Shown piece after piece: positions 1,615 through 7,809 of a DNA stretch of 9,422 nt. This DNA is from a virus (taxonomy: Duplodnaviria > Heunggongvirae > Uroviricota > Caudoviricetes). Under the pieces are notes generated by a model, which was not told where the DNA came from, did not search any database, and saw nothing but the letters and a program-made list of their open reading frames with translations. Both the position numbers and the translations under genes were made by a program. Position 1 is the stretch's first letter. The number at the start of each line of letters is the position of its first letter. The DNA lies in the IMG/VR virus record IMGVR_UViG_2554235187_000005. One strand, given 5' to 3'.

Positions 1615-1983
1615 ATGACCGAACGCATAGAATTTGTTTTGCCTTACTCGCCGACGGTGAACACTTACTGGCGACGCCGTGGCAGCACATATTTTGTATC
1701 AAAAGCCGGGGAGCGTTATCGCCGGGCAGTGGCGCTTATTGTTCGCCAGCAGCGACTGAAATTAAGCCTGTCCGGACGGCTGGCAATAAAAATTATTGCA
1801 GAGCCACCGGATAAGCGTCGTCGTGACCTGGACAATATTCTGAAAGCACCACTGGATGCGCTGACGCACGCGGGGTTGTTAATGGACGATGAGCAGTTTG
1901 ATGAAATCAATATTGTACGTGGCCAGCCAGTATCTGGTGGACGGCTGGAGATAAGAATTACAGAGGTGGGTGTGCATGAATAA
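1615..1983 (+). CDS. rusA: Holliday junction resolvase RusA
   Basis: 122-aa product with RusA family hallmarks (NTYWRRRG, DKRRRDLDNILKAPLDALTHAGLLMDDEQ, GGRLEIRITE); start ATG immediately follows upstream stop. Confidence 0.85.
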   Translation: MTERIEFVLPYSPTVNTYWRRRGSTYFVSKAGERYRRAVALIVRQQRLKLSLSGRLAIKIIAEPPDKRRRDLDNILKAPLDALTHAGLLMDDEQFDEINIVRGQPVSGGRLEIRITEVGVHE

Positions 1984-2665
1984 CCAGTATTTACAGTTTG
2001 TTCGTGAGCAACTCATGATTGCCACTGCAGATCTCAGTGGGTCGACAAAATGCCAGCTGGAAGCCTGGCAGGAAAATGCCCTGTTCGATACAGGGCGTTA
2101 CAGACGCAAAAAAATTCGTTACCGCGATGAGGTAACCGGAAAAATGATCACGCGGGATAATCCCCCGATCCAGGGTAAACAATCACTGGCGAAAGGCTCA
2201 TCAATTGCGCTGGTCAGTCCTGTTGAGTTTGCAACATCATCGTGGCGGCGTGCTGTTCTGGAACTGGAAGAACATCAGAAGGCGTGGTTGTTGTGGTGTT
2301 ATGGCGGAAACATTTGCTGGGAGCATCAGATCGCGATAACGCAGTGGGGGTGGAGTGAATTTAAAACTCAGTCCGGCTCCAGAAAAATTGCAGTGAAAAC
2401 GCTGGAGCGTGTGAAGAAGTTGATCTGGCTGGCGGCACAGGATGTCAGAGGATGGGTTACCGGGTGTGAGGTCTACCAGAGACAGGAGCTTGCCAGACTG
2501 TGTGGAGTTAAGCCTGATAACTGGAGCCATAATTATGCGAACTACTGGCGTGAGATGTGCGATATTTTTAAGCGCCTCGATAGAGAATCCTTGATTTGCT
2601 CCGTGAAAATAAGAGCGCAACAAAAAGCGACCTTTTCACGACGAGATATTGCAAAAGTCAATTAA
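1976..2665 (+). CDS. Late-gene antitermination protein Q-like (QuuQ-type size class)
   Basis: 229-aa ORF overlapping the rusA stop (ATG 1976; alternative GTG 1970); position between rusA and a strong intrinsic terminator upstream of the lysis genes is the canonical Q position; family assignment by recall only. Confidence 0.55.
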   Translation: MNNQYLQFVREQLMIATADLSGSTKCQLEAWQENALFDTGRYRRKKIRYRDEVTGKMITRDNPPIQGKQSLAKGSSIALVSPVEFATSSWRRAVLELEEHQKAWLLWCYGGNICWEHQIAITQWGWSEFKTQSGSRKIAVKTLERVKKLIWLAAQDVRGWVTGCEVYQRQELARLCGVKPDNWSHNYANYWREMCDIFKRLDRESLICSVKIRAQQKATFSRRDIAKVN

Positions 2666-3089: not shown

Positions 3090-3388
3090 GTGGTAAATGG
3101 GCGGCTGGTGGGTGTGGTGGTTGTTGCTTTCCCGTTGCTGAAAAAGAAAACGCCAGACTGTTAGCCGGGTATCAGTTAGCGGGAGAAATTTTTAAATACT
3201 TCACAATTCAGGCGGTTGACTGTTGTCTGGTTTGCGGGGAGTTTGTTAAAAGAAACTGGCATGGTGAATCCCCCTGTGCGGAGGGGCAATCAGCGAGTAG
3301 GTATATGGGATAATCGCGGATTCAGGTGCTGGTACTGAATTCACCGGGAGGCACCCGGCACCATGCAATGGCACATAGCGCCACTCTC

Positions 3389-3424
3389 CAGCCCCTCTCC
3401 GGAGGGGCTGTTTATATTGATTTT
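3389..3424. terminator. Strong GC-rich hairpin terminator (+ strand; also closes the convergent minus-strand ORF)
   Basis: 9-bp stem CAGCCCCTC/GAGGGGCTG with loop TCCG (3389-3410) followed by TTTATATTGATTTT. Confidence 0.6.
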
Positions 3425-3444: not shown

Positions 3445-3780
3445 TTATGGACTTTGTTGTTTTAGCCCATAAGGACATATTTGCAGAGTGCAACGGTTAT
3501 TAAAGCATTCATTCAATACGTTATCTGTATTTGTAGGGCATTCCTGGCTGTTTTTGATTAAATTCCAGAATGTTTTATTGAATGGTACTACGTTGTAAAT
3601 GGTTACAGGTAGCACTTTGTTATTGAGCATGATACCTGTGTGAGTCAGTGTAAATATACTTTCAGGAGGTAAGAAAGCATCCGATTGATACCAGATTATT
3701 AATTTTATTTTACTCCATATGACTGAAAAAGATATTCCGCATGATGGCTGGATAACTGTATCAATCACAATCCACTTCAT
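3445..3780 (-). CDS. Hypothetical protein (111 aa), Cys-containing, encoded on an AT-rich island
   Basis: Minus-strand ORF with SD AAGGAAA ~6 nt upstream of ATG (rc of 3781-3795); opposite orientation to the late operon; terminator hairpin just downstream of its stop. Confidence 0.5.
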
Positions 3781-4536: not shown

Positions 4537-4752
4537 ATGTACCAGATGGAAAAAATCACAACAGGTGTGTCATACACCACGTCAGCGGTGGGAACGGGCT
4601 ACTGGTTCCTGCAGTTGCTGGACAGGGTTTCCCCGTCTCAGTGGGCGGCAATAGGCGTGCTGGGGAGTCTGCTGTTTGGGCTGCTGACATATCTGACTAA
4701 CCTGTATTTCAAAATCAAAGAGGACCGGCGTAAGGCGGCGCGGGGAGAGTAA
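4537..4752 (+). CDS. S: Phage-21-type pinholin (class II holin) with dual-start motif
   Basis: 71-aa product [71 protein letters not shown] closely matches recalled S21 pinholin; Met1 and Met4 starts. Confidence 0.85.
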
Positions 4753-4756
4753 AGTG

Positions 4757-5647
4757 ATGAATAAAAAATATGAACTGGTTGTTAAGGGGATAAATAATTA
4801 CGGGGATAAGGTTACTGTTACTGTGAAGTCGGAAGGTGACGGGCAAGCGTCGCTGTTGTTGCCAGATGTGGCGATTAGTCTTGACCGTACTGAAGGTGCC
4901 ACGCTGGAGTTTTACGAAGCTGAGGCGAAAAAGCAGGCGAAGCAGTTTTTCATGGATGTTGCTGCCGGGTTATGTGAATGGAACGAACCGTTGCCGGAAA
5001 AGCGCCCCGTAATTTTAGAGGCGCAGGATGTGTTGATAACCTACAAAGGAAAGCTACCGGGAAGAATTACTTGTTCTCTGAAGATGCCGCCGTCAACACT
5101 GCGGTCAGAAAAAGATGATGTTGAATCACGTATTGAAAAACTGGAGAGCTACGTCGTTGAGCTGAATAAGAAATGGTCGATATTGGTGCCTTCTGGCGAT
5201 GAAAAGCAGTTTGCTGCGTTTGACGATTATTGTCGGAAAGTGATGAGCAGAAATCTCGCAGAGTGTTTCAGTATTCATAATGATAATTTCAGTGACCCGG
5301 AATGGGAGTGTAACCGGCCATCCTTTGTTGTATCCGGTGATGCTGGGAAAATAACCATCTCAGAAAATGGGAAAGTAACACCTCCATCGCACCAGCACAG
5401 TGAGGAGCTCATTGAATTTGCCATTGATTACCTGAAGAACAATAAAAAGCAGGGGCTGATGAAGCGCGTTGGCCGTTGCATGGGATATCTTCAGGTAGCC
5501 GCTGAGATTGAAGCGCTGGCCAGTGGTGCTGATAAGGATGCAATTGTGCGGGAGGCTCTTCTTCGTGATTTTAATACTCCACCCTTTAAAAAAGTGCCGG
5601 CTTACTGGCTTCATCCGGGGCTGACTTATCTTAAAGTGCGTATTTAG
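4757..5647 (+). CDS. Unknown-function protein (~296 aa) inserted between holin and endolysin
   Basis: ATG 4757 (GTG 4754) starts 2-5 nt after the holin stop with GGAGAG SD; long clean ORF, no TM segments, predicted coiled-coil-like stretch (DDVESRIEKLESYVVELNKKW); no family recognised. Confidence 0.7.
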   Translation: MNKKYELVVKGINNYGDKVTVTVKSEGDGQASLLLPDVAISLDRTEGATLEFYEAEAKKQAKQFFMDVAAGLCEWNEPLPEKRPVILEAQDVLITYKGKLPGRITCSLKMPPSTLRSEKDDVESRIEKLESYVVELNKKWSILVPSGDEKQFAAFDDYCRKVMSRNLAECFSIHNDNFSDPEWECNRPSFVVSGDAGKITISENGKVTPPSHQHSEELIEFAIDYLKNNKKQGLMKRVGRCMGYLQVAAEIEALASGADKDAIVREALLRDFNTPPFKKVPAYWLHPGLTYLKVRI

Positions 5648-5683
5648 TGGGCCAGGGACAGCGGCTGAATATTTAATATATCC

Positions 5684-6217
5684 ATGAACACCAAAATCAA
5701 ATACGGCCTGTCGGCTGCCGTTCTGGCGCTGATTGCCGCTGGTGCGCCTGCGCCTGACATTCTCGACCAGTTTCTGGATGAAAAGGAAGGCAACCACACC
5801 ACGGCATACCGTGATGGTGCAGGTATCTGGACCATCTGCCGTGGTGCCATCATGGTGGATGGCAAACCTGTCGTTCCGGGCATGAAGTTGTCGAAGGAAA
5901 AATGCGACCAGGTTAACGCCATTGAGCGTGATAAAGCGCTGGCGTGGGTGGAGAAAAACATCAGAGTGCCGCTGACCGAACCCCAGAAAGCGGGGATCGC
6001 GTCATTCTGTCCGTACAACATTGGTCCCGGTAAGTGTTTCCCGTCGACGTTTTACAGACGAATTAATGCTGGTGATCGAAAAGGTGCCTGCGAAGCGATT
6101 CGCTGGTGGATTAAGGACGGTGGCAGAGACTGCCGTATTCGTTCAAACAACTGTTACGGTCAGGTATCCCGTCGTGACCAGGAGAGCGCGCTGGCGTGCT
6201 GGGGTATCGACAGATAA
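5684..6217 (+). CDS. R: SAR endolysin (T4-lysozyme-like, R21-type)
   Basis: N-terminal Gly/Ala-rich weakly hydrophobic SAR segment (GLSAAVLALIAAGAPAP) followed by an E-x8-D-x5-T catalytic triad (EGNHTTAYRDGAGIWT). Confidence 0.85.
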   Translation: MNTKIKYGLSAAVLALIAAGAPAPDILDQFLDEKEGNHTTAYRDGAGIWTICRGAIMVDGKPVVPGMKLSKEKCDQVNAIERDKALAWVEKNIRVPLTEPQKAGIASFCPYNIGPGKCFPSTFYRRINAGDRKGACEAIRWWIKDGGRDCRIRSNNCYGQVSRRDQESALACWGIDR

Positions 6218-6305
6218 GCAGAATATTTTGCTGAAAAATGAGGAATGGCCACGCGGGCGGATAACACGAAATCCTGCGAACTGGCGAAACGTAAGTGAAT
6301 AAAAG

Positions 6306-6350
6306 TAAAAACCCCGTTTGTTGGCACCAAGCGAGGTTTTGTGTTTCTGA
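6306..6350 (+). terminator. Terminator-like structured element after the endolysin gene
   Basis: Imperfect stem AAAACCCCG/CGAGGTTTT enclosing a mini-hairpin TTGG-CA-CCAA, followed by a T-rich GTGTTTCTG; weak. Confidence 0.25.
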
Positions 6351-6373
6351 CCTTGAGTAAGGCAAGGGAGAAC

Positions 6374-6556
6374 ATGGCGAAGTGTAAACGAATTCTGTTG
6401 AGGTTGACTATGAAAAATGGCCTTGAACTGAAAGCGCCTGTAACTGATGACATCAGCAGAGCACTGGCTTTTGCCATTAAGTGGGTGGCGGTCGGTGTTG
6501 CTGTGTCCCCGATGCTGTATGGGCTGGCAAAACTGGTCATTGCGTTGAAATCGTGA
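6374..6556 (+). CDS. Small membrane protein (60 aa, C-terminal TM helix)
   Basis: ATG 6374 preceded by AAGGGAG; C-terminal hydrophobic segment [27 protein letters not shown]. Confidence 0.5.
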
Positions 6557-6570
6557 AGGGAGGATTAAGC

Positions 6571-6702
6571 ATGTCAGACAAACTCATAACGCTGGCGAAG
6601 ATCCTCTGTGTAATTGTCGGCATTTCATTTTCACTAATGCTGGTTGCTCTTTTTCTTTCCATGGCCTGGATGATGTTGTCTTCGTCGGGGTTGCTGGGGT
6701 GA
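6571..6702 (+). CDS. Small membrane protein (43 aa, single TM helix)
   Basis: ATG 6571 preceded by strong SD GAAGGGAGGA; hydrophobic core [26 protein letters not shown]; stop overlaps the Rz start. Confidence 0.45.
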
Positions 6703-7172
6703 ACATAAACCGAATGCTTTCCGCGTTTATCGTTATTCTGCTGGTGGCCTGTGGTGCGCTGTGGATGGCAACAGACCATTACCGTGATAACGCGATTACC
6801 TACAAAGCGCAGCGCGATAACAAAGCCAGTGAACTGAAGCTGGCGAACGCAACCATTACTGATATGCAGGTGCGCCAGCGCGATGTTGCTGCGCTCGATG
6901 CAAAATACTCGAGGGAATTAGCCGATGCGAGAGCTGAAAATGAAACTCTTCGCGCTGACGTTGCCGCTGGTCGTAAGCGCCTGCGGATCAACGCCACCTG
7001 TCCAGGCTCCGTGCGTGAAGCCCCCACCACCTCCGGCGTGGATAATGCAACCGGCCCCCAACTGGCAGACACCGTTACACGGGATTATTTCACCCTCAGA
7101 GAGCGGCTGATGACGATGCACAAGCAACTGGAAGGGGCACAGGACTATATCCGCACTCAGTGCCTGAAATAA
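6699..7172 (+). CDS. Rz: Rz i-spanin
   Basis: Near-identity to recalled lambda Rz over most of its length ([14 protein letters not shown]..., DYFTLRERL...); N-terminal TM; GTG start at 6699, alternative ATG at 6714. Confidence 0.9.
6940..7110 (+). CDS. Rz1: Rz1 o-spanin lipoprotein embedded in Rz (+1 frame)
   Basis: [15 protein letters not shown] lipobox followed by proline-rich mature region (PPPPPAW); fully nested inside Rz as in lambda; alternative upstream ATG 6925. Confidence 0.8.
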
Positions 7173-7482
7173 GTTTTGTTGATGCGCCGTATCGTCGCTA
7201 TATTCCCTCATTAACAGAGACCGCAGCCCGACAGGGAGACTCCTCTGCGCGAGTGTGCGGGGATAATTAAAAACGATGCACACCGGGTTTTTACCGCGTT
7301 AATGATTCGCGGGTTTATCCCGGTGCGATGGTGGAAGAAACAGGAAGCTGTATTACAGAAAGTGCTACTACTGTATCCCGATGCGATGTATGTAATGTGA
7401 GTCAGATAATGGCACAGGATGTGGTGATGTGGCAGTCTGGAACACAGGATATATTGTCAGAATAAGACCCGTAGGAATAAAA

Positions 7483-7809
7483 ATGAAAAGACGCCTTTTA
7501 CTACTTTTTCTGTTATCTGTCCTGGCAGTGGGATGCTCGCAGCAAAAAGCTGATGAGCCCCGGCAATTAGTGACGGTGTATCCACGATATCCGGAATATG
7601 CTGCAGCAAATTATATCAAGGGGCTGGTTGAGGTTAAGTTCGATATTGGTGCTGATGGGACTGTGACACGGATCGTTTTTCTCCGCTCAGAGCCTCATAA
7701 TTTGTTTCGTGATGAAGTGGTGAAGGCCATGGCGAAATGGCGATTTGAAAAGAATCGCCCCTGTCAGGGAGTGAAGAGACAATTTATCTTTACGCCGTCA
7801 CGTCCTTGA
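7483..7809 (+). CDS. Lipoprotein with TonB C-terminal-like domain (phage moron)
   Basis: SD AGGA 6 nt before ATG; signal peptide plus lipobox LAVGC; mature part matches the TonB-CTD pattern (YPxYPxxA...G-V-V-KFDI--DGTV--I--L-S-P---F--EV--AM--WRF). Confidence 0.6.
   Translation: MKRRLLLLFLLSVLAVGCSQQKADEPRQLVTVYPRYPEYAAANYIKGLVEVKFDIGADGTVTRIVFLRSEPHNLFRDEVVKAMAKWRFEKNRPCQGVKRQFIFTPSRP

Follow-up and report, generated by a model that had tools for sequence, protein, structure and literature searches.

The DNA analysed here, referred to below as the window, is a stretch of 9,422 nucleotides from the IMG/VR virus record IMGVR_UViG_2554235187_000005 (Caudoviricetes), and it is the start of the late region of an E. 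coli lambdoid prophage. Its genes follow the order Q, a moron-rich Q-S interval, S, a YdfR-family gene, R, Rz/Rz1, a TonB_C-domain gene and Nu1 (Table 1). The YdfR-family gene is the subject of this work. It is enclosed by a P21-type pinholin gene (S) and the gene of a SAR-type endolysin (R), the product of which has a Gly/Ala-rich, SAR-like N-terminal segment (19-residue Kyte-Doolittle mean, KD19, of 1.74 at residue 9) and an E-x8-D-x5-T motif. A preliminary description of the locus had named these flanks, and had placed between them a long reading frame that is coupled to the holin, has a Shine-Dalgarno sequence of its own and stops 36 nt short of the endolysin; the present analysis bears out each of these points.

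Table 1. Features of the window, with positions counted from its first nucleotide
Feature	Position	Strand	Remarks
DUF968, RusA, antiterminator Q	1970-2665		first in window order
STnc100 sRNA match (Rfam)	3230-3419	+	Q-S interval; 132 bits, E 1e-29
Terminator-like hairpin	3389-3410		strong; STnc100 match ends here
111-aa ORF	3445-3780	-	Q-S interval; RefSeq "anti-adapter protein IraM"
Pinholin S, class II (P21-type)	4537-4752	+	71 codons, dual start M1/M4; PF04971, E 7.2e-33; phrog_9876/phrog_20 holin
Shine-Dalgarno-like GGGGAGAG	4742-4749	+	within 3' end of S; read from sequence; serves YdfR-family gene
YdfR-family gene	4757-5647	+	296 codons plus stop; alternative in-frame start GTG 4754
N domain, residues 1-73	4757-4975	+	DUF1327 core; predicted 3 beta-strands and long helix; pLDDT 79-98
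Linker, residues 76-115	4982-5101	+	predicted disordered; pLDDT <50 for residues 76-116
Helical hairpin, residues 116-172	5102-5272	+	pLDDT ~70; variable insertions here in homologues
C domain, residues 185-296	5309-5644	+	predicted 3 short strands and 4 helices; pLDDT 81-96
145-aa ORF	5360-5797	-	across C module; regarded as spurious
Spacer to endolysin start	5648-5683	+	36 nt
SAR-type endolysin R (lysozyme)	5684-6217	+	PF00959, E 2.4e-24; phrog_7 endolysin
R-Rz interval	6218-6698	+	second insertion slot within lysis cassette; small ORFs
ORF	6341-6556		no Pfam match
60-aa ORF (RefSeq)	6374-6556		R-Rz slot
43-aa ORF (RefSeq)	6571-6702		R-Rz slot; single hydrophobic helix; ends at Rz start
Rz/Rz1	6699-7172 and 6925-7110		downstream of endolysin
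TonB C-terminal domain gene	7429-7809	+	between Rz and Nu1; lipoprotein-like N-terminus (LLSVLAVGCSQ)

The pinholin stop codon (TAA, 4750-4752) is followed by two start codons in the same frame, GTG 4754 and ATG 4757; the ATG lies 4 nt past the stop, and the GGGGAGAG run ends 7 nt upstream of it. Judged by alignment, ATG 4757 is the conserved start, since homologous loci that have no GTG begin at the equivalent ATG and since positions 1-296 of the PHROG 1085 profile pair with residues 2-297 when translation is taken from the GTG. The gene ends with TAG at 5645-5647. Its GC content is 46% and its GC3 0.47; S, R and Rz have 54-55% and 0.59-0.68, respectively. No sigma-70-like promoter was found upstream of it on the plus strand, and a terminator-like hairpin stands just 5' of S, so that its expression should need Q antitermination. 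The impression of late-expressed cargo given in the preliminary description thus agrees with both its transcription, which is shared with the lysis operon, and its composition.

The STnc100 match in the Q-S interval may be a short late-promoter leader or a prophage sRNA. The minus-strand gene annotated as IraM is a moron in the same interval, at the position that stx has in Stx phages, while the TonB C-terminal domain gene downstream of Rz is at the position of bor in lambda.

A catalogued family and its domain architecture

The gene had been described as unrecognised, and this does not hold. Residues 2-101 match Pfam DUF1327 (PF07041) with 137.9 bits against a gathering cut-off of 25 (E 1.3e-40), the match to PHROG 1085 spans the entire protein (E 3.1e-190, 296 of 296 profile positions), public sources name the product "YdfR family protein", and BLASTP aligns it with E. 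coli K-12 YdfR at 47% identity over 78 columns (E 6e-21). By its sequence, the gene is the full-length form of an already catalogued family of E. coli lambdoid prophages. The window copy is also ordinary in its occurrence: the exact protein is found on at least 1000 contigs of a public collection, and by megablast 2703 of the 5426 complete E. coli genomes have at least part of the gene, 496 of them at a coverage of at least 80%, with many copies 100% identical. An exhaustive profile search of 1.84 billion representative proteins returned only 109 relatives. A scan of viral contigs with an alignment of distant homologues recovered E. coli-type loci only; a scan of genome contigs with a single peptide pattern gave three loci, all from Escherichia or Shigella, and is a poor guide to distribution.

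The family is functionally uncharacterised. PHROG 1085 is of unknown function, as are all nine PHROG matches of the protein, and an NCBIfam search returned nothing. The preliminary description had considered that a well-characterised family might emerge; neither Pfam nor NCBIfam gives a match to Bro-N, an antirepressor or another common moron. Holin, antiholin and lysis-regulator families are equally absent, for there is no match in the lysis category of PHROG and Pfam gives DUF1327 alone. That the frame might be a degraded fragment had also been raised. A locus with DNA 100% identical to the window is indeed annotated by RefSeq/PGAP as a pseudogene "missing C-terminus" (L001, 9004-9339, equivalent to window positions 4757-5092), but the label covers codons 1-112, codons 113-296 carry no RefSeq annotation there, and the frame is open for 296 codons; the pseudogene call is therefore an annotation artefact, by which an intact 296-codon gene is listed as a 112-codon pseudogene.

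The product has 33.3 kDa and a pI of 5.95, and in structure prediction it consists of two globular domains joined by a linker and a helical hairpin (Table 1); a second AlphaFold model (AF2) has a mean pLDDT of 76. Its N domain is acidic (pI 4.8), and the linker, despite its predicted disorder, is conserved in sequence among E. coli homologues (alignment A1). As the preliminary description had stated, there is no transmembrane segment or signal peptide by the Kyte-Doolittle measure, the maximum KD19 being 0.75, while the holin reaches 1.70 and the endolysin 1.74. The profile of the family gave no significant match to PDB sequences, no informative fold match was obtained, and the C domain (~110 aa) has no Pfam match at E<=1. 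An internal duplication of the N and C domains was rejected (hhalign probability 0.15%), and so was a P-loop NTPase: residues 193-201, SGDAGKITI, do not fit the Walker A pattern GxxxxGK[ST], and GDAGK (residues 195-199) is unconserved in homologues and falls within a predicted beta-hairpin. This agrees with the earlier view that the protein holds no recognisable catalytic motif.

Relatives of 266-314 aa from Salmonella enterica and from metagenomes, 26-33% identical to the window protein, have the same layout of N domain, coil and C domain. Their sharing of this layout indicates that the window protein is the full-length archetype and that the short K-12 form is a derivative. In alignment A2, which takes in these relatives, 12 residues of the C domain are invariant (H214, L226, G239, R240, L245, Q246, A248, P276, K278, W284, P287 and Y291). 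Comparison with the window gene gives dN/dS of 0.17-0.44 for the C module and of 0.34-0.83 for the N module, from which the C module is seen to be under purifying selection, so that the plus-strand frame is a real gene and no chance ORF. The minus-strand ORF that crosses the C module has no family match and, given the purifying selection on the plus frame, is regarded as spurious.

An optional occupant of a recombination hotspot

Among IMG/VR loci, 80 carry a holin at least 97% identical to that of the window; nine of these end before the endolysin, and 71 are informative. A YdfR-family ORF occupies the S-R slot in 59 of the 71, and in the other 12 the slot is empty, with S and R 1-4 nt apart. 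The preliminary description had held that S and R are normally contiguous, which is true of 933W and VT2-Sakai, as well as of Min27, but not of this population. Twenty-nine slots hold an N-only ORF of 86-116 aa, 6 hold the N domain with the middle region (140-176 aa), and 24 hold a C module, in nine cases within an ORF of 296/297 aa, in one of 328 aa, in three of 268 aa, in seven within an M+C-only form (185-214 aa) and in four within a disrupted one. Wherever the slot is occupied, the ORF begins 1-5 nt past the holin stop, except in three disrupted loci. Among GenBank phages, 366 records have this S-R pair, and of these 100 encode the N domain and only 5 (4 phages) the C module. Stx phages have versions of 114 aa (BP-4795 and many Stx1a/Stx2c phages), 211 aa, 268 aa (phage 86) and 329 aa (Stx2_95). 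Those of phage 86 (gp05) and Stx2_95 (BCI50300) come from inducible phages and combine N domain, coil and C domain in the S-R slot, as in the window; their C modules are 83-94% identical to that of the window, and their middle regions differ from it by insertions and deletions.

The variable content of the slot, together with the deviant GC and GC3 of its occupant, identifies the S-R slot as a recombination hotspot, the occupant of which is optional, compositionally foreign and modular, and the YdfR-family gene is no core lysis gene. Since M+C-only forms without DUF1327 use the same slot, the N and C modules may act independently. Such a locus invites the reading that the insert is functionless, a hitch-hiker spread and eroded by recombination and of no current role to the phage. 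Truncated, frameshifted and fragmentary versions are numerous (in L011 the frame is split into 163 + 135 aa), three loci (L014, L031 and L044) have no coupled start, the gene is dispensable in many phages, and the locus identical to the window bears the pseudogene flag. We nevertheless consider decay without function highly improbable. The window copy is full length by comparison with Salmonella relatives that, at 26-33% identity, keep its architecture and the 12 invariant residues of the C domain; the C module has dN/dS below 0.5, and the predictions for both globular domains are confident; the gene is carried by inducible Stx2 phages, phage 86 and Stx2_95 among them; and the flag concerns codons 1-112 of an open frame.

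The place of the gene within the cassette suggests a modulator of lysis timing, which, co-translated with the pinholin, would act from the cytoplasm on the tail of the holin, on the still unreleased SAR endolysin, or on the expression of the lysis genes. With a start 4 nt past the S stop, ribosome traffic is shared with S, and the distance to R is fixed: where the C module lies directly before R, most partner-less loci have a spacer of 36 nt and a minority one of 42 nt. C-module genes moreover adjoin three kinds of cassette (S21 pinholin-lysozyme, Phage_holin_2_3-lysozyme and GH108 endolysin), and Goepel et al. (PMC13232886) cite the 2014 screen of Paradis-Bleau as having scored a K-12 ydfR mutant for envelope integrity. 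The main text of Paradis-Bleau 2014 has no mention of ydfR, and we infer that polarity of the resistance cassette on the downstream lysozyme gene rrrQ could account for the envelope phenotype. Known systems offer a partial parallel: the soluble antiholins P1 LydB, encoded after lydA, and T4 RIII show the same order of a holin and then a soluble, cytoplasmic protein (see also PMC9025707). They have no homology to the window protein, however, and the S21 cassette possesses its own antiholin by way of the dual start of S (M1/M4); unlike them, the YdfR-family gene is dispensable and, in relatives, is encoded at a distance from holin genes. Holins with at least 97% identity function where the slot is vacant (12 of the 71 loci, 933W and VT2-Sakai) as well as where it contains an N-only or C-only version, and the protein lacks a transmembrane segment and any match in the lysis category of PHROG.

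Relatives at other positions also bear on this question. The full-length relatives from Salmonella and metagenomes stand between Q (with a HicAB pair) and the holin, which belongs to the Phage_holin_2_3 family at three loci and is P21-type at the fourth. Other genes separate these distant relatives from the holin, and they pair with unrelated holin families. In the Salmonella-type prophages (L170-L173, about 4780-5780, minus strand) genes for a HicA/HicB toxin-antitoxin pair are placed on the opposite strand, in the interval from Q to the YdfR-family gene. A C-only relative of 125 aa is found upstream of a GH108 endolysin, and stand-alone DUF1327 proteins of 72-76 aa (L174, 4695-4925; L175, 3788-4018; L178, 5001-5219), one of them from Sodalis ligni, are encoded inside lambdoid tail clusters, adjoining tail protein L. 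DUF1327 proteins are thus met in the S-R slot, in the Q-S interval and among the tail genes L/K, and their presence in tail clusters marks a mobile late-operon module that is not specific to the lysis cassette. What is constant across relatives is the lambdoid late operon, often near the lysis genes, with no fixed type of holin or endolysin. A lysis-specific role is weakened by these positions, and we hold lysis timing to be unlikely as the function of the gene; a general role in late infection, directed at the host, fits the varied positions better than a part in the lysis machine.

A second gene accompanies the C module in part of the family. This gene, phrog_1853 (~104-111 aa, with no Pfam match and of unknown function), is convergent and lies directly past the stop of the C-module gene; of 73 non-identical C-module loci, 21 have it, and prophages of E. 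coli and Salmonella Dublin as well as metagenomic ones are represented. Copies on the minus strand are L003, 4175-4489 (gp06 of Stx2 phage 86); L172, 6807-7124; L168, 2378-2713; L181, 495-812; and L180, 436-759. The distance from the C-module stop is 7-25 nt in four subtypes (tblastn), and in L180 the two genes overlap at the stop; copies are 39-41% identical to one another, that of L180 27%. In the phage 86 type the gene (orf6) stands between the YdfR-family gene and R, whereas the window has no phrog_1853. The C module and phrog_1853 look like a conserved two-gene module of which the second gene is missing in the window, and the C-terminal ~110 residues can be added to the list of conserved domains that lack a Pfam model.

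The convergent pair resembles some two-gene immunity modules, and it is one of several features that recall a moron for defence, superinfection exclusion or anti-defence, which would benefit the lysogen or shield the phage from host immunity. The foreign composition of the gene (GC3 0.47 against 0.59-0.68), the extreme presence/absence and module shuffling at a single hotspot, and the partly variable N domain with its relatively high dN/dS are in keeping with such a role. We judge it very unlikely all the same. The search of PADLOC-DB 2.0 gave nothing significant, the best match being PbeC (E 0.018, 11.3 bits) over the coiled segment 120-183; the gene has no plus-strand promoter of its own; the K-12 homologue is unexpressed in the lysogen under standard growth and is not toxic on overexpression; and the phrog_1853 partner is absent from the window. 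Anti-defence genes are usually early rather than late, and this gene is late.

A tentative link to RNase E

Among the closest known systems is YdfR of E. coli K-12 (b1555, P76160), encoded in the cryptic prophage Qin. It has the N-terminal DUF1327 in common with the window protein, and its gene is likewise found in the S-R slot, flanked by the genes of a P21-type holin and a lysozyme (essQ-ydfR-rrrQ) and tightly coupled to both. At 103 aa, K-12 YdfR consists of the N domain and a short basic helix, and is without the linker, helical hairpin and C domain of the window protein. In a two-hybrid screen published in 2026, residues 1-72 of K-12 YdfR were recovered three times and were sufficient for interaction with Rne and Rng; these first 72 residues bind the catalytic half of RNase E (PMC13232886). 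Full-length Strep-YdfR co-purified Rne(1-598) together with DNase-resistant nucleic acid, though the RNA, as the authors concede, may have come from a contaminant; a short-linker fusion of full-length YdfR scored with Rne(1-597) only (PMC13232886). In the same study ydfR was essentially silent in uninduced K-12 under standard growth, and overexpression of YdfR was not toxic and changed few transcripts (PMC13232886). Over residues 1-74 of K-12 YdfR, a region that covers the RNase E-binding segment, the window protein shows 47% identity and 67% similarity.

Based on this homology, we hypothesize that the YdfR-family product of the window is a non-essential, cytoplasmic, two-domain protein that would be made from the Q-dependent late transcript alongside the lysis genes, and that its likeliest mechanism would be the binding of a host factor rather than action on the membrane or the cell wall. 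Through its acidic DUF1327 domain, the protein would dock on the N-terminal, catalytic half of RNase E (and on RNase G), or on RNA bound there, and the C domain, carried by the flexible linker and the helical hairpin, would supply a second interaction. The outcome might be a tuning of RNA decay late in infection, for instance by making the long late transcript, which encodes lysis and morphogenesis proteins and, in Stx phages, the toxin, more or less stable. That a late accessory factor should dock on RNase E through DUF1327, make a second contact through its C domain and tune RNA decay in this way is in our view a tentative possibility, still short of probable; roles outside the four readings weighed here hold the remaining probability. 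Binding of RNase E by the window protein, and any consequence for RNA decay, would follow by analogy with the K-12 protein, to which the RNase E and RNA binding data belong (PMC13232886). Against the RNase E model, the binding evidence concerns a relative of 103 aa and not the 296-aa window protein, the dN/dS of the N domain is fairly relaxed (0.34-0.83), and there is no link between the C domain and RNA metabolism.

Phage-encoded modulators of RNase E include Srd of T4, gp0.7 of T7 and Dip of phiKZ, which are early or middle genes of virulent phages. They provide a working analogy, in that a small phage protein may bind RNase E and so alter RNA decay. The window gene, by contrast, is a late gene of a temperate lambdoid phage, and no relation in sequence or fold was detected between its product and the known modulators. 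A bolder form of the RNase E model, which we rate as decidedly unlikely, would make the full-length YdfR-family protein a temperate-phage adaptor or inhibitor of RNase E, in which the C domain, in some phages together with phrog_1853, recruits or blocks RNAs and so controls the stability of the late transcript.

About half of the complete E. coli genomes contain the family, as do many Stx-converting phages, and its gene lies on the late transcript that also encodes the toxin and the lysis proteins. If the phage proteins prove to share the link to RNase E, this would show how temperate lambdoid phages handle the decay of host RNA in late infection, and it could have a bearing on the output of Shiga toxin. 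Should the bolder form be true, the stability of the late transcript would set lysis timing, burst size and, in Stx phages, the yield of Shiga toxin, and the family would represent a new class of phage-encoded regulator of RNA decay, present in half of E. coli genomes.
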